64,000 bases of DNA from an uncultured Actinomycetota bacterium (GTDB lineage Bacteria > Actinomycetota > Actinomycetes > Actinomycetales > Cellulomonadaceae). The DNA lies in NCBI GenBank assembly GCA_963769855.1, contig CAVYNN010000007.1, positions 558-64,557 on the forward strand, given 5' to 3'. This document shows, piece by piece, positions 5,078 to 60,772 of this stretch. Under the pieces are notes generated by a model, which saw only the letters and a program-made list of their open reading frames with translations, was not told the origin of the DNA and did not search any database. The stretch's first letter is position 1, and the number at the start of each line of letters is the position of its first letter. The translations under genes were made by a program, and so were the position numbers.

Positions 5078-6046
5078 TCAGGCGGGCAGGCGTGCGGCGA
5101 GCCAGTCCAGCACGGTCGCGAGGTACGCCTCGCGAGCGGGCGACGGGGACAGGGACAGGTCGTGCGCGCCGCCGGGGATCTGCACGACGGTGACGTCCCG
5201 GCCGAGCAGGGGGGCCCGCCCGGTGATGTCGCGGACGTCGAGGATGACGTCGGTGGTCAGCAGCCCCTCGTGCGCGTGGTCGTCCGGCCCGCTCGCGCCG
5301 GAGGCGAGCGCGAGGACCGGAGCGAGGACCTCGAGGCCGCGTGCGACTCGGCGGTGCCCGGCCCGGATCGTGCGCACCCACCCGGCGCGCACGGGGAAGC
5401 CGTCGTGCGGCTTCCACCTCAGGTCGTAGTCCCACTCGCCGCCGGTCGCCACGTGCAGCGCGCGGCCGTAGAAGGGCTGCATCCGGCGCACCGGCAGCCG
5501 GGGTAGCACGCGCCCGACGACATCGAGGATCGCGGTCAGCGGTCCGCGCTCGAACGGCGTGCCGTTGAGGTCGAGCCACGGGCTGTTGAGCACCAGCGCG
5601 TCGACCAGGCCGGGCCGCCGGTCGGCCCAGAGCGGGGCGATCAGCCCGCCCGTCGAGTGCCCGTGCACGACGACGACGTCGTGGTCTGCCCGCAGCACCT
5701 CCATCGCCAGGTCGAGCTCCTGGGCGTACAGGCCGATGTCGGTGGTGAAGTTCGGCTCCCGGCCCGGCCGGATCGAGCGCCCGTGGTCGCGCAGGTCGAG
5801 GGCGAAGAAGTCCCAGCCTGCAGCGTCGAACGCGTCCGCGAGGTGGCGCTGGAAGAAGTAGTCGACGAAGCCGTGCACGTGCAGCACGGCGCGCCGGGAC
5901 GCCCGGCCGGGGTGGTCGCGCCGGACGAGGGTGGCGACGGCGGGTCCGAACCCGTCGGGCGGCAGGTCGAGCGTGCAGGCGGACCAGCCGTCCCCGAGCA
6001 CATCGGGTTGCCACACCGGTGGCCGGAACACCCTCGAGCTGGTCAC
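5078..6046 (-). CDS. Alpha/beta hydrolase (lysophospholipase / monoacylglycerol lipase-like)
   Basis: Shows the HVHGFVDYF oxyanion region, the nucleophile elbow VVHGHSTGG and a C-terminal GGAHD. GTG start at 6046 is in frame; the longer ORF prefix is Arg/Pro-rich and looks non-coding. Confidence 0.75.
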
Positions 6047-6060
6047 GCACCGATCCTCGC

Positions 6061-6230
6061 ACCCTCTCCCCCCCTCCACCCCCTCTCTCCCGCACCCCCT
6101 CCCCTTCCTCCCTCCCCCCCGGTCGTCGTCGCGAACGCGGCAGTTGGTGTCGAACGCGGCAGTCCTGCCTGCCGCGCTCGCGTGGAACTGCCGCGTTCGA
6201 GGAAGGAGGGGGATGGAGGGGGGAGGGGTT
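6061..6230. repeat. Composite intergenic repeat: a 60-nt pyrimidine tract, a duplicated CGAACGCGGCAGT core with one inverted copy, and a G-rich closing arm
   Basis: 6061-6120 has only 4 purines in 60 nt. CGAACGCGGCAGTT is at 6132-6145 and CGAACGCGGCAGTC at 6151-6164. The inverted copy AACTGCCGCGTTCG is at 6186-6199. GGAAGGAGGGGGATGGAGGGGGGAGGGG is at 6201-6228. Confidence 0.7.
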
Positions 6231-6260
6231 GCTAGGGAAGTTGAGCGGAATAGACTCAAG
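6229..6260 (+). promoter_or_regulatory. Predicted clpB promoter overlapping a HAIR-type (HspR) operator
   Basis: -35 TTGCTA (6229-6234), 16-nt spacer, -10 TAGACT (6251-6256). The inverted repeat gTTGAGC-GGAATAG-ACTCAAG (6240-6260) fits the HAIR consensus CTTGAGT-N7-ACTCAAG. Confidence 0.6.
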
Positions 6261-6305
6261 TTCGGCCAGGTTGCCTTCGCTAGACGCCACCACCAGGAGG
6301 AACGC

Positions 6306-8936
<2,631 letters not shown>

Positions 8937-56293: not shown

Positions 56294-56322
56294 TGCCCCG
56301 CTCGTCGGGCTCGCCCGACGAC

Positions 56323-56395
56323 GCCGCCTTAGCTCAGTCGGCAGAGCGTCTCACTCGTAATGAGAAGGTCCCGAGTTCGATTCTCGGAGGCGGCT
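56323..56395 (+). tRNA. tRNA-Thr (anticodon CGT/CGU)
   Basis: Cloverleaf by hand. Acceptor GCCGCCT/AGGCGGC, D arm GCTC-AGTCGGCA-GAGC, anticodon arm TCTCA-CTCGTAA-TGAGA (CGT at 56356-56358), T arm CCGAG-TTCGATT-CTCGG, discriminator T. 73 nt. Confidence 0.9.
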
Positions 56396-56415
56396 CAGAT
56401 ATAGCAGCAGGTCAG

Positions 56416-56433
56416 AGGCCCCGTTCGGGGCCT
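56416..56433 (+). terminator. Hairpin with T-rich tail after the tRNA
   Basis: AGGCCCC-GTTC-GGGGCCT followed by TTCGCTT. Confidence 0.5.
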
Positions 56434-56555
56434 TTCGCTTGTATACGGGGGAGCCGCCGGGAGCCGCTCCGGGAGCCACGGAGCCACTGGCCCGGAGCAG
56501 GCGTCTCATTTCCGGCGGTGATATACGGCGCGCCCGAGACTTCACCCGCGCAGTG

Positions 56556-57044
56556 TCAGGCCAGAACTCCGGGAGGCGGCGTAGCCCGCTGCGACTGCCC
56601 CAACGGCGCATGGGCGGCTCGGCGCTGAGCATCCCTAACGGCGGCCTCCACGGCGTCCGCGATGTCGGCGATGTTCTCGTGCTCCCAGAAGCGCAGAACG
56701 GTCCAGCCAGCAGCCGTGAGGGCGGACGTAGTCTCGGCGTCGCGGGCGACGTTACGGGCCAGCTTCGGCGACCAGTAGTGCTCGTTGACGGTCGGCATAC
56801 GGCTGTGGACGGGACAGGCGTGCCAGAAGCAGCCGTCGACGAAGACGGCAACCCTCCACCGCGTGAACACCACGTCAGCCGTCCGCCGCAGCGTCGGCAC
56901 GGGTCTCGTGGCAACGCGATAGCGCAGACCACGCTGGTGAAGTTCCCGGCGCAGCAAGAGTTCGGGACGGGTGTCCCGCGACCGGATCGCCTGCATGTTG
57001 GCGCGACGTCCCGGGGTGGATGCCCATGACTGCGTCTCGGTCAC
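56556..57044 (-). CDS. vsr: Very short patch repair endonuclease
   Basis: 162 aa from an in-frame GTG. RRANMQAIRSRDTRPE...TADVVF...VAVFVDGCFWHACP...GWTVLRFWEHE matches Vsr blocks. Confidence 0.85.
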   Translation of the reverse strand: MTETQSWASTPGRRANMQAIRSRDTRPELLLRRELHQRGLRYRVATRPVPTLRRTADVVFTRWRVAVFVDGCFWHACPVHSRMPTVNEHYWSPKLARNVARDAETTSALTAAGWTVLRFWEHENIADIADAVEAAVRDAQRRAAHAPLGQSQRATPPPGVLA

Positions 57045-57158
57045 TAGGCGAACGTACGGCGTGTGGGTGGTCGGGCATACGTTCGCGCGGCAGGCGTGGC
57101 TCCCACGCCCCGGGCGCGTGCGCGGGTAGCGTCGCGCCAACGAAGCGAGGGGTGGCAA

Positions 57159-58115
57159 GTGACCGATCTGACGTCCGTCGAAATCTGCACCGGAGCGGGC
57201 GGTCAGGCCCTCGGCTTGGAGCGCGCCGGCTTCAGCCACGAGGCGTGTGTCGAGATCGAGAATGCCGCGTGCGAGACGTTGCGACTTAACCGTCCCCACT
57301 GGAACGTCCTCGAGCGAGACCTTCTTGGCTGGTCCGCCTCCGATTACTCGGGTGTCGATCTTCTTGCTGGTGGCGTGCCGTGCCCGCCCTTCTCGCACGC
57401 TGGCAAGCAACTCGGGGAGAAGGACGAGCGGAACCTCTTCCCGAAGGCCATCGAGCTCGTCGACGAGATCCGCCCGAAGGCAGTCATGCTCGAGAACGTC
57501 CGCGGGCTCCTCGACACGGTGTTCGACCTCTACCGCCACGACGTCGAGCAGCAGCTCATCAAGCTCGGCTACAAGCCCGGCTGGCGGCTCTTGAACGCGA
57601 GTGATTTCGGAGTCTCCCAGCTGCGCCCGCGTGTGGTCTTTGTCGCCCTCCGCCACGAGTACGCCGACAACTTCCACTGGCCGACCGCGCACGAGAGCAA
57701 CCCGCCGACGGTTGGAGCTCTCCTCAAGGACCTCATGGCCGCGAACGGCTGGGAGGGTGCCGACGCGTGGGCAAACGAAGCAGACGACATCGCTCCGACC
57801 CTCGTTGGCGGTTCGAAGAAGCACGGCGGCCCTGACCTGGGTCCGACGCGTGCCCGTGCTGCGTGGGCGTCCCTAGGTGTTGACGGACGCACTATCGCTG
57901 AGGAAGCACCGGGGCCAGGCTTCGCCGGGATGCCTCACCTCACGGTCCGGATGGCGGCCCGTGTGCAGGGCTTCCCCGACGAGTGGCGGATCTTCGGCAA
58001 GAAGACGGCGGCGTACCGCCAGGTCGGCAACGCGTTCCCGCCCCCGGTTGCGGAGGCGGTCGGCATGAAGATCAAGGAAGCGATCACCACCCGGCGTCTG
58101 CACGCGACGTCGTGA
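57159..58115 (+). CDS. dcm: DNA (cytosine-5)-methyltransferase
   Basis: GTG 57159. Motif I EICTGAGGQALG, motif IV GGVPCPPFS, motif VI MLENV, motif VIII QLRPRV, motif X QVGNAFPPPV. Confidence 0.9.
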   Translation: MTDLTSVEICTGAGGQALGLERAGFSHEACVEIENAACETLRLNRPHWNVLERDLLGWSASDYSGVDLLAGGVPCPPFSHAGKQLGEKDERNLFPKAIELVDEIRPKAVMLENVRGLLDTVFDLYRHDVEQQLIKLGYKPGWRLLNASDFGVSQLRPRVVFVALRHEYADNFHWPTAHESNPPTVGALLKDLMAANGWEGADAWANEADDIAPTLVGGSKKHGGPDLGPTRARAAWASLGVDGRTIAEEAPGPGFAGMPHLTVRMAARVQGFPDEWRIFGKKTAAYRQVGNAFPPPVAEAVGMKIKEAITTRRLHATS

Positions 58116-58984
58116 GTACCGCCGAGCCGCTGTTCGCTGCTGCGCGCGCTCAGTTCCACGCCGGGCTGCTGAGGGACCACATCCTGACGGTCGACGGTCG
58201 TGGTGTCGCGAGCAACGCGGACAGCGGCAGCCGGGCAAGCTGCGCGTACGCCGCGCACCTCGCTCGCGCGTTGCAGGTCGAGACGGGTCAGTCTCGGCTC
58301 GCAGGGCAAACGTCCGGCGGCGGGTTCGAACAGGCGTGCGCCGACTTCCTCAACGAGACGTTCCCAGCGCTGCACCACCTGCGGCCCGGTGATTGGACCA
58401 TCCAGAAGGTCGGCGGGCGTGGGGAAGCGGCCGGTGTGGCGCGGTTCGAGCAGTACGCGCACCTCGTGGAGCTGACCGAGGCGGTCCGTCACAACCCGGC
58501 GCTGCGTGCGGTGCTCGGTAACGGTTAAGCGATCGCGCCTGATGTCGTGGTGTTCCGTGAGCCCGTTTCTGATGCGGATATCAACGCCTTCGAGTGGCTC
58601 GTTGATGACACTGTCGCGCTCAGCGCATCACTGCGCGCCGTGGTGCAGCCCAGGCCAATCCTTCACGCTGTGGTGTCCTGCAAGTGGACGCTGCGTTCGG
58701 ACCGCGCACAGAACGCCCGCAGCGAGGCCCTGAACCTCGTCCGGAACCGGAAGGGCCGTCTCCCGCACATTGCAGTCGTCACAGGCGAGCCGACTCCAAC
58801 CCGCATCAGTTCGCTCGCGCTCGGCACAGGCGACATCGACTGCGTGTACCACTTCGCGCTTCCCGAGCTTGTCGCGGCAGTCCGCGCAGAAGGCGCCGAC
58901 GACACGATCGAGCTGCTCGACATGATGATTGACGGCAAGCGGCTCAAGGACATCTCAGACCTGCCGCTCGACCTCGCGGTCTAG
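58112..58984 (+). pseudogene. NgoMIV-family (CCGG-family, PD-D/ExK) type II restriction endonuclease interrupted by an in-frame TAA
   Basis: GTGA overlap with dcm. The N-terminal half ends ...AVLGNG, then TAA at 58526-58528. The same frame continues AIAPDVVVFREP...VVSCKWTLRSDRAQNARSEALNLVRNRKGRLPH...GKRLKDISDLPLDLAV. I recognise this as NgoMIV-like along its whole length. Confidence 0.8.
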
Positions 58985-59952
58985 GTGTCCGCTTCGTCGA
59001 GGTCAGTTTCGGCTTCAAGCTCGTCGGCTTCGGGTGGTTCCACTGCGAGGTTGTCCAGCAAGGGAGTTGGCTTGAGCGTCTCGATGTCCGCGAAGAGCTG
59101 CGAAAGGTCGAATACACGCTCGCGCAGGTTCAGCCAGCGGGCGTAGTCCTTGACGTCTTGACTCTCGCCGAGCAACCGATCTTTGGGCACTGCATCGCCA
59201 GCTGCGACCCGCGGGAACGGCTCGTGCACCGCGAGGAGCATCGCCTTCGAGACGTGGTAGACGCGGTCGACGAGAGGGTCATTCGCTAGCCAGAACAGGA
59301 TGTTGGGGTTGAACTCGGAGACGACGAACGCCACCTGAAGGTCCGGGCGCCGACGCTTGTAGAAGTACGCCTCGTGTAGGTAGGTGCCGATGCGCTCTTT
59401 CCGGAGCGCCCACTTGGTGGAGATCAGCAGCCGGAAATCGTCGACTCCGAAGAGGGCCAGATCCGGTCGTGAGTGGTAACCGTCTGGTGCGAGCTCGAAG
59501 CCATTCAGAGTGCTGAGGAGCGGTTCCCGCGCCGGAGCGTGACCGCTGATCCGTCCGATGATGACCTGCAATGCGACCTCAAGGGCTGCACCTGTGATGT
59601 TCGGGTCACGGCCCTTCGGAGGAGCGAAACCCTGCTGCACGCGCTCGAAGGCGTATCGGCGACCGATGAAGTCGACGAATGGGAAGGGGTTGGCGACCCC
59701 GCCGGGCAGGAGATTTGCGCGCAGGTAGTCAGTGCCGCGGTTCGATAGTGCCTTGCCGCCGGCGCTAGACAGGCGGTGGTTCAGGTGCAGGTACGTGACC
59801 CCGGCCGCGTCCTCCGTCCACAGCGCGATGGCGTACACATATCGCCAGGCAGTCGCGGCAGTGAGGGGTCCGAGATACTGCGGGAGGTGTGCGTCGACCA
59901 GTTCCACGATTGTGTCGCGGTACCAACCGTCGGGGAGCTTGAACGTCGGCAT
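58981..59952 (-). CDS. Putative second CCGG-family PD-(D/E)xK restriction endonuclease-like protein
   Basis: 323 aa from ATG 59952, 5 nt after GAGGA. RPDLALFGVDDFRLLISTKWALRKERIGTYLHEAYF has the same S-x-K-W-x-L-R-x-(D/E)-R-x6-E spacing as the adjacent NgoMIV-like gene. Visibly more A/T-rich than the core. Confidence 0.5.
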   Translation of the reverse strand: MPTFKLPDGWYRDTIVELVDAHLPQYLGPLTAATAWRYVYAIALWTEDAAGVTYLHLNHRLSSAGGKALSNRGTDYLRANLLPGGVANPFPFVDFIGRRYAFERVQQGFAPPKGRDPNITGAALEVALQVIIGRISGHAPAREPLLSTLNGFELAPDGYHSRPDLALFGVDDFRLLISTKWALRKERIGTYLHEAYFYKRRRPDLQVAFVVSEFNPNILFWLANDPLVDRVYHVSKAMLLAVHEPFPRVAAGDAVPKDRLLGESQDVKDYARWLNLRERVFDLSQLFADIETLKPTPLLDNLAVEPPEADELEAETDLDEADT

Positions 59953-60373
59953 CGAATCCTCGTCCGCGTGTACCGCACTGTGTAGACGCGAACCTACAGG
60001 ACCCTCACCGCTGCACGGCCTGAGGCAGTCCTTCGCGTCCGGTGTGCGCAAGGCGTTCTAGCGTCCTGACGGCGGCGAGTGCGCGCCGGTCGACCCGGCC
60101 CGTCTCGTTTCGGGCTTCGCACTCGGCCCAGGGTGCACACCAGCGAGCTCGGGCACTGCGTGCCGGAGCGTCGCGATCCCGGCGAGCCCCAGCTCGAGCA
60201 CGGATCGTTCGTCCCAGCCGGGCCACAGCCCCACTGGCGGTGCGAGCAGTGCGAGCCGCGCCCGGAGTTCTACGGCGAGCGCGGCGGCCTCCTCGAGTGC
60301 GTCGTCCCGCTCTGCCGCGCTGCACTCCCCGTGGCTCCCTGTCCGCCCCGTCTCGTCCTGGTCGGCACGTTGC

Positions 60374-60772
60374 TCATCGCGGGCGGGTGACCGTGGCGTC
60401 GGAGAGGTCGCCGGCGAACCGCGTACTGGGGTCCGGGACCAGCACGCGGTGTTCGTCCCGGACGAGCCGCTCGAGATGCACCACGGCGGCACGGGCACGC
60501 GCACGGGTCGGCTCACCGGTTGTCCCGGAGACCGCGAGCACCCACGCCTGGTGTCGGTCGGCGAGCTCGGGTACACGGCCCACCAGCAGCGCGCACGCGT
60601 CGCATGCATCGGCCAGGAGGAGGAGCGCGCTGGCTCCGTCGGCCTCCTCTGCTCCCCGCAATCCACGCAGCCGCTGCCGGAGCACCAGCGCAGCGTCGCC
60701 TGCTGCACGAAACGCAGCGTCACGAAACGAAACGGTGGCGCTCGTGGTGGTGGCGTTCCCGGGGGTGCTCAT
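60374..60772 (-). CDS. Hypothetical protein; may continue by frameshift into 60058-60373
   Basis: 132 aa from ATG 60772. The downstream frame (ORF 60058..60723) turns coding-like (ECSAAERDDALEEAAALAVELRARLALLAPP...) right where this ORF stops. Confidence 0.35.
   Translation of the reverse strand: MSTPGNATTTSATVSFRDAAFRAAGDAALVLRQRLRGLRGAEEADGASALLLLADACDACALLVGRVPELADRHQAWVLAVSGTTGEPTRARARAAVVHLERLVRDEHRVLVPDPSTRFAGDLSDATVTRPR

Follow-up and report, generated by a model that had tools for sequence, protein, structure and literature searches.

X323, the product of a minus-strand gene in a 64,000-nt stretch of DNA from an uncultured member of the Cellulomonadaceae (contig CAVYNN010000007.1, positions 558 to 64,557; the window, hereafter), is probably an active, Mg2+-dependent Type II restriction endonuclease. 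The name X323 is used here for this 323-amino-acid protein, whose gene lies in a module with genes for a very-short-patch repair endonuclease (Vsr), a C5-cytosine DNA methyltransferase (the methylase) and an NgoMIV-type restriction endonuclease that is disrupted. X323 would represent a branch of the CCGG family that has no name and is mainly actinobacterial, and would most likely cut GCCGGC or a longer site that includes it, with the host protected by the adjacent methylase. This reading is based on sequence motifs, homology, a predicted fold, gene linkage and the reciprocal decay of neighboring nuclease genes. Its placement in the CCGG family is supported by a profile-profile match, by the predicted fold and by invariant catalytic and recognition residues.

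Catalytic and recognition motifs of X323

X323 contains RPDLALFGVDDFRLLISTKWALRKERIGTYLHEAYF, in which S178-x-K180-W-x-L-R184-K-E186-R187-x6-E194 mirrors the S185-C-K187...R191-S-D193-R194...E201 segment of NgoMIV. Relative to K180, the residues R184, E186, R187 and E194 lie at +4, +6, +7 and +14, and the K-X13-E spacing of the permuted CCGG-family active site is exact (K180, E194). The first-pass annotation of this DNA had pointed out the same peptide and offsets, which were found again on reading the open reading frame (ORF), and its NgoMIV numbering (K187, R191, D193, R194 and E201) agrees with an alignment to the structure 1fiu_A. The bare pattern K-x3-R-x-[DE]-R-x6-E arose in 70 of 200,000 composition-matched shuffles of X323, while the fuller S-x-K-W-x-L-R-x-[DE]-R-x6-E arose in none of 200,000.

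An alignment of 43 X323 family members (A1) was used to assess conservation. N118, T120, G121, E125, P163, D164, S178, T179, K180, W181, R184, K185, E186, R187, H193 and E194 are invariant in it. The copy of X323 in the window deviates from near-invariant columns at only three positions (D59H, A70S and T182A; family median, four) and, judged by its sequence, is without signs of decay. Among 16 relatives with identities down to 21%, R184, R187 and D164 do not vary and position 186 holds only D or E; the distant relatives (21-40% identity) retain D164, S178, W181 and R-x-(D/E)-R. One subgroup (P0244, P0245, P0246, P0251 and P0253) retains D164, S178, W181 and R-x-D-R with Ile, Leu or Phe at the position of Lys180, and mostly does not have the Pro of the PD motif. 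Its members may be inactive DNA binders or may carry a relocated Lys.

The predicted secondary structure places these motifs in a familiar order. The PD motif opens a strand, S-x-K ends the next strand and R-x-E-R starts the following helix (185-201), and the same strand/strand/helix order has been described for the CCGG family (PMC6344858, PMC3413111). The distance from D164 to K180 is 16 residues in X323 and 47 in NgoMIV, as had been noted in the first-pass annotation. Fifteen residues lie between the two in X323, whereas the CCGG-family pattern is given as PDX46-53KX13E, with a PD-to-K gap of 46-53 residues (PMC3413111, PMC6344858). PfoI, an accepted member of the family, is likewise short-gapped (D169...K187; PMC6344858), and the spacing of 46-53 residues is therefore not universal in the CCGG family. 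We read X323 as a compact variant of this family and not as an outsider.

A further motif, N118-x-T-G-x-x-[FL]-E125, starts a predicted helix (117-136). Its 7-residue spacing is that of Q63..E70 in NgoMIV, and also that of N73...E80 in Bse634I (PMC3413111). N118...E125 of X323 is probably equivalent to Q63...E70 of NgoMIV, and would then provide a minor-groove contact and a third acidic active-site residue. Patterns of this type appeared in 201 of 200,000 shuffles (a chance of ~1e-3), and a profile alignment with NgoMIV did not recover the motif.

Homology to NgoMIV and predicted fold

Profile-profile comparisons were performed with hhalign between the 43-member alignment and 27 NgoMIV homologs. 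These gave a probability of 89-90% and an E-value of ~2e-6 over 69-94 columns, covering X323 residues 176-244 and extending up to ~286 with looser settings. The alignment pairs K180, R184, E186, R187 and E194 of X323 with K187, R191, D193, R194 and E201 of NgoMIV, and the homology runs on through VVxE..P, DxVYH and a C-terminal RLxDLxxL. Comparison of the N-terminal halves recovered only the PD strand (GYHSRPDLALF versus GYAIAPDVVVF), which was not significant (E 0.28). Because hhalign found nothing more than this strand in the N-terminal half, the correspondence of E125 with E70 stays a motif-level argument.

An AlphaFold2 model of X323 was built on the family alignment, with a predicted local distance difference test score (pLDDT) of 90.4 and a predicted template modeling score (pTM) of 0.88. 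A Foldseek search of this model against the PDB returned NgoMIV first (top E 2.7e-6), then PspGI (1.3e-5) and BbvCI (4.6e-3), followed by AgeI and Ecl18kI; the matches to NgoMIV, PspGI, AgeI and Ecl18kI had probabilities of at least 0.97. X323 as modeled has the PD-(D/E)xK alpha/beta core of the solved CCGG-family members. The first-pass annotation had proposed that X323 is a distinct CCGG-family nuclease and had named a Foldseek search as a check. The search, with NgoMIV, PspGI, AgeI and Ecl18kI among its top matches, agrees with that proposal, as do the profile-profile match, the predicted fold and the invariant residues. The further statement that, outside the motif, X323 bears no relation to NgoMIV does not stand, as profile homology spans residues 176 to ~286, the whole C-terminal half, and an NgoMIV-like motif occurs at N118...E125.

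Scans of X323 itself against Pfam gave no match (E <= 1), including to PF09015 (NgoMIV_restric) and PF09126 (NaeI), and a PADLOC scan gave none either. A single NCBIfam match, to a dioxygenase model at 0.043, was rejected as spurious, leaving no relevant NCBIfam match. Some distant relatives come near the threshold for PF09015: P0241, P0251 and P0259 score 18.2-23.1 bits over profile positions 172-252, against a gathering threshold of 23.2 bits. The lack of a direct Pfam or PDB sequence match would be expected if the motif were coincidental and X323 unrelated to restriction enzymes. We give this explanation almost no weight, given the hhalign E-value of 2e-6, the CCGG-family enzymes at the top of the Foldseek matches, the failure of 200,000 shuffles to produce the extended motif, and a methylase gene adjacent in every informative locus.

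Homologs of X323 were collected to assess how widely the protein occurs. We found 123 homologs of similar length with 43-68% identity, almost all labeled "hypothetical protein", from genomes of Actinomycetota and Thermoleophilia and from soil metagenomes. An exhaustive profile search of 1.84 billion representative proteins found just 92 clusters at E <= 0.001, and the family is therefore small. It comprises ~120 clusters at 90% identity, chiefly from Actinomycetota and Thermoleophilia.

Inactivation of the adjacent NgoMIV-type gene

The plus-strand NgoMIV-type gene encodes SCKWTLRSDRAQNARSE and is split by a single in-frame TAA at 58526-58528, five codons ahead of the PD Asp. When this codon is read through, the protein aligns with NgoMIV (1fiu_A) at an E-value of 1.7e-100, and D140, S185, K187, R191, D193, R194 and E201 were counted along this alignment. 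The TAA falls at the position of NgoMIV Tyr135, where intact homologs have GNGYAIAPD. A sequencing error is formally possible as the origin of the TAA; public sequencing runs covering 58112-59952 of the window were sought and none were found. In the window as assembled, X323 is the only intact nuclease of the module and the NgoMIV-type gene is inactivated by a nonsense codon.

A shared methylase and the probable target site

Related loci were collected to assess the gene linkage of X323, and these number 26 (genomes, 11; metagenomes, 11; reached via specific proteins, 4), of which 24 are distinct. A Dcm-type 5-methylcytosine (m5C) methylase adjoins the X323 homolog in 19/19 distinct loci with usable flanks. 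Identity to the methylase of the window is 53-63%, and 87% in the colinear locus L012. The target-recognition core of these methylases, APT[LI]VGGSKKHGG[PA]DLGPTRA..W..LGVD, is near-identical across loci, and it is found beside X323 alone, NgoMIV alone (L025, L026), the NaeI and NgoMIV pair of L027, and NaeI together with X323 (L029, L030 and eight genome loci). GCCGGC is the recognition site of both NgoMIV and NaeI (PMC4081073). As this methylase type is common to the two GCCGGC enzymes, it most likely modifies GCCGGC, and the site cut by X323 is most probably GCCGGC itself or a longer sequence that includes it.

In eight distinct loci, X323 is the only recognized nuclease accompanying the methylase. 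Five of these have a tight methylase-then-X323 arrangement on one strand (L001, L013, L014, L015 and L019), and in L007 the two genes are adjacent and divergent. The scanned neighbors in L001, L007 and L015 include a transposase, transporters, a helicase and ORFs without a Pfam match; no other recognizable restriction enzyme was found among them. From these loci, X323 looks able to serve as the sole nuclease of a system.

A gene for Vsr is present at about three quarters of the 19 distinct loci with usable flanks. The constant link of X323 to an m5C methylase, usually with Vsr too, could also be explained if X323 were a MutH-like nuclease for repair or strand discrimination, acting with Dcm and Vsr on hemimethylated or mismatched GCCGGC. 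MutH, a repair nickase related to a restriction enzyme, provides a precedent. We consider this highly improbable. Vsr also stands beside the same methylase type in loci with NgoMIV only, so that Vsr tracks the methylase. The X323 family is small and patchy and occurs in compositionally foreign modules near transposases and defense genes, as mobile restriction-modification genes do, and X323 decays at some loci (L011, L012, L021). In the first and last of the latter, the X323 homolog has an internal stop (L011:3931-4821) or a frameshift (L021:919-1804), with apparently intact methylases; both are metagenome-assembled genome or metagenome sequences.

The window itself is not depleted of the presumed site. 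GCCGGC occurs 184 times against 105 expected from shuffles, so it is over-represented rather than avoided and site avoidance says nothing on the specificity of X323. With 184 sites in the window, a live enzyme would depend fully on the methylase. The 3.4-kb module (56556-59952) has 2 copies, at 57225 and 59758, compared to ~10 predicted from the window-wide density.

Two nucleases beside one methylase

X323 is found with a second nuclease in 14 loci including the window, 10 with NaeI and 4 with NgoMIV. The NgoMIV-type gene and X323 form a tail-to-tail pair beside one methylase in four independent loci (the window, L012, L028 and L017). L012 is colinear with window positions 56756-59946 at 75.5% nucleotide identity and has the opposite pattern of decay. 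There the NgoMIV-type gene is intact, with a product 89% identical to the read-through protein of the window, whereas the X323 homolog is frameshifted and spread over three reading frames. Between the two loci, the methylase genes are 81.7% identical at the nucleotide level, the NgoMIV-type genes 77.9% and the X323 genes 71.8%, the last having nine gap openings. In L028 neither nuclease gene is disrupted, and the two stand tail to tail with their stop codons abutting; on the short contig of L017, both C-terminal ends are seen in the same arrangement.

The pair is thus inherited as a unit, and different lineages lost different members. The first-pass annotation had suggested that the locus swapped nucleases while keeping one methylase. 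The methylase type is indeed the same and the NgoMIV-type gene is dead, but the conserved tail-to-tail pair and its reciprocal decay identify the window as a loss from two inherited nucleases and not as a replacement.

A full-length NaeI-family gene, a full-length X323 homolog and one methylase occur together in L002-L006, L008, L009 (identical to L018), L010, L029 and L030. In L003 and L004 a single strand carries NaeI, methylase, X323 and Vsr; in L005 and L010, which show no Vsr, a single strand carries the other three. Cultured isolates of Brachybacterium, Isoptericola, Arthrobacter, Kribbella and Paractinoplanes are among the sources. A literature search for loci with two nucleases and one methylase returned nothing on point; as far as could be found, recurrent modules of several nucleases with one methylase are undescribed so far.

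This frequent and stable coexistence with an intact NaeI or NgoMIV homolog could be explained if X323 were a true CCGG-family enzyme with a longer or more restricted site that complements NaeI or NgoMIV, for instance the 8-bp CGCCGGCG or GCCGGC with flanking preferences. The invariant Lys185 within R-x-(D/E)-R and the family-specific N-terminal region of ~115 residues could add contacts, and the methylase demands merely that the site include the methylated GCCGGC. We think this unlikely, though it is the strongest of the alternatives and amounts to a variant of the main reading. X323 is accompanied by the methylase and no other recognized nuclease in eight distinct loci, a rarer cutter would be a weaker defense, and there is no direct evidence for extra base contacts.

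The same 14 loci, and the one-strand order of NaeI, methylase, X323 and Vsr (L003, L004) or of its first three genes (L005, L010), are also what would be seen if X323 were an accessory to NaeI- or NgoMIV-type enzymes, whether as a heteromeric subunit, an activator at a second DNA site or a nickase. NaeI (Type IIE) and NgoMIV (Type IIF) do need two sites for efficient cutting (PMC4081073). Such a role nevertheless appears improbable, because X323 stands alone with the methylase in eight distinct loci, its two partner nucleases are structurally unrelated, which argues against a specific protein-protein complex, and X323 retains the full catalytic set. In addition, the window and L012, which have each lost a different nuclease, show that either can be kept without the other.

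The modules with two nucleases and one methylase could, with fairly low probability, be a selected design with complementary arms and not transient redundancy. X323, without the inter-strand insert, may be a simple dimer that cuts lone or differently flanked sites, and its structure may resist a phage inhibitor of the partner nuclease. If so, the pair would deny phages and plasmids that have few sites a way to evade restriction, and the layered defense would have been cut to one arm in the lineages of the window and L012.

Further observations were made on the composition of individual loci. L027 (3824-8412) holds a NaeI-family gene, an NgoMIV-family gene, a 307-aa ORF (5917-6840), a methylase of the same type and Vsr, and could have up to three nucleases around one methylase. 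The 307-aa ORF, which lies between NgoMIV and the methylase, was tried as an X323-like gene and was rejected by tblastn; it has no Pfam match. In L012, similarity to the window starts inside vsr. The vsr homolog there (L012:952-1233) matches just residues 7-100 of the 164-residue window vsr query; no gene is called and it looks truncated. Farther along, L012 carries PIN, ISL3 transposase, HNH and AAA genes and resembles a defense island. In L026, from Ruicaihuangia caeni, a 231-aa HNH-motif protein (5882-6577) is encoded between the NgoMIV-type gene and vsr, and an integrase and a RepSA gene nearby place the module on an integrative element.

Proposed mechanism and points against it

Catalysis, the recognition site, the position of cleavage and protection by the methylase are inferred by analogy to the CCGG family, from which the mechanism is drawn (PMC6344858, PMC3413111). 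E125, D164, K180 and E194 would form the permuted CCGG-family active site, binding Mg2+ and activating water. The helix starting at R184 would enter the major groove with its tip, so that R184, E186 and R187 could read CCGG there, and N118 would contact the outer pyrimidine from the minor groove. By analogy with every characterized member of the family, cleavage would occur before the first C of CCGG and leave 5'-CCGG ends. C5 methylation by the adjacent methylase would shield host DNA, and Vsr would mend the T:G mismatches that arise by m5C deamination. The module would have been acquired horizontally with vsr, the methylase, the NgoMIV-type nuclease and X323, and would originally have held two nucleases of the same specificity.

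Several points weigh against this reading. X323 itself has no Pfam, NCBIfam or PADLOC match, and sequence searches of the PDB with the single protein or with the family profile gave no nuclease. TM-scores between X323 and NgoMIV are just 0.47-0.52. The PD-to-K gap of 46-53 residues typical of the family is absent, being 15 in X323, and the equivalence of E125 to NgoMIV E70 is based on a short motif. The specificity of the methylase is judged from the neighboring nucleases. X323 is also often accompanied by another intact nuclease that presumably has the same specificity, which simple redundancy does not explain; the role of X323 may therefore differ from that of a plain isoschizomer.

Organization of the locus

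The features of the module are listed in Table 1. The ORF of X323 spans 58981..60051 on the minus strand, and the ATG at 59952, which gives 323 amino acids, agrees with the N-termini of homologs. The methylase stop codon and the start codon of the NgoMIV-type gene share GTGA at 58112-58115. The NgoMIV-type gene and X323 are convergent and overlap by CTAG at 58981-58984, with TAG as the stop codon of each. This is the 4-nt overlap described in the first-pass annotation, which had also called X323 more A/T-rich. Its GC content is in fact the lowest in the module (X323, 0.632; NgoMIV pseudogene, 0.669; methylase, 0.672; whole window, 0.716).

Table 1. Coordinates of features of the module and its surroundings, in window positions.
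Feature	Position	Strand	Basis or remark
tRNA-Thr(CGT) gene	56323-56396		160 nt from vsr end
Vsr very-short-patch repair endonuclease gene	56556..57053	-	TIGR00632 1.2e-39, PF03852 1.8e-19; divergent from methylase gene
C5-cytosine DNA methyltransferase gene	57063..58115	+	PF00145 1.5e-64, full length
NgoMIV-family restriction endonuclease pseudogene	58112..58984	+	PF09015 on both halves, 4.6e-34 and 4.4e-72
X323 gene, 323 aa, intact	58981..59952	-	ORF; homologs; AlphaFold2 model; Foldseek; hhalign
X323 S178-T-K180-W-A-L-R184-K-E186-R187-...-E194 codons	59371..59421	-	catalytic Lys/Glu and predicted CCGG-reading R-(D/E)-R
X323 P163-D164 codons, PD catalytic Asp	59461..59466	-	start of predicted strand 165-167
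X323 N118-I-T-G-A-A-L-E125 codons	59578..59601	-	proposed equivalent of NgoMIV Q63-T-S-G-N-A-F-E70
GAGGA, ribosome-binding-like, 5' of ATG at 59952	59957..59961	-	direct sequence reading

The GC content at third codon positions (GC3) of the four module genes (vsr, methylase, NgoMIV-type and X323) is 0.78-0.81, compared to 0.97 in the adjacent hydrolase gene. This low GC3, together with the nearby tRNA-Thr gene, suggests that the module is an acquired island. A search for an att-like direct repeat of the tRNA-Thr end that would delimit the island was negative, and no sigma-70-like promoter was found in 56300-60400. The ORFs to the right of X323, at 60-64 kb, had no Pfam match.

Implications

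These results assign a function, as proposed above, to a conserved family that has no family model and is labeled "hypothetical" in nearly all public records. They add a compact branch to the CCGG family, a model for the evolution of diverse specificities and oligomeric states from one structural core. The new branch has the canonical short hairpin between the catalytic strands, yet keeps the permuted Lys/Glu arrangement. In the recurrent modules described here, one methylase and one Vsr are common to two or three unrelated nucleases that presumably have the same specificity. Since different nucleases were lost in different lineages, redundancy, complementarity and gene turnover in restriction-modification systems become directly testable. 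If active, X323 would add a new restriction enzyme for GCCGGC or a related site.

Comparison with known systems

NgoMIV (G|CCGGC; Type IIF; PDB 1FIU/4ABT; PF09015) is the closest known enzyme and the best Foldseek match. Its active site, E70/D140/K187/E201, corresponds to the proposed E125/D164/K180/E194 of X323. The K-X13-E spacing is the same in the two enzymes, S-x-K-W-x-L-R-x-(D/E)-R stands where the recognition helix starts in each, and their C-terminal halves are homologous (VVxE..P, DxVYH and RLxDLxxL). The two enzymes also have a methylase type in common and so probably the same core site. However, identity in the structural alignment is only ~12% and X323 has no PF09015 match. X323 is without the ~30-residue insert that NgoMIV has between its catalytic strands, which accounts for the PD-to-K distances of 16 and 47; its N-terminal 115 residues differ, and it has E186 for D193 and K185 for S192.

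PspGI, Ecl18kI, EcoRII-C, AgeI, BsaWI, Kpn2I, PfoI, Cfr10I/Bse634I and SgrAI resemble X323 in having a PD...K...(D/E) site and an R-(D/E)R head (PMC6344858). These enzymes differ from X323 in recognition context, and sequence similarity to X323 is not detectable beyond the motifs. The canonical Glu position, lost in PfoI, is kept in X323.

NaeI (GCC|GGC; Type IIE; PF09126) shares with X323 the presumed hexanucleotide, the methylase type and, in 10 distinct loci, the locus itself. Unlike X323, NaeI belongs to another PD-(D/E)xK branch, the beta-class, and is a blunt cutter with a Topo/CAP domain (PMC4081073). The two have no sequence or fold match, and NaeI homologs are encoded by separate genes in the related loci.

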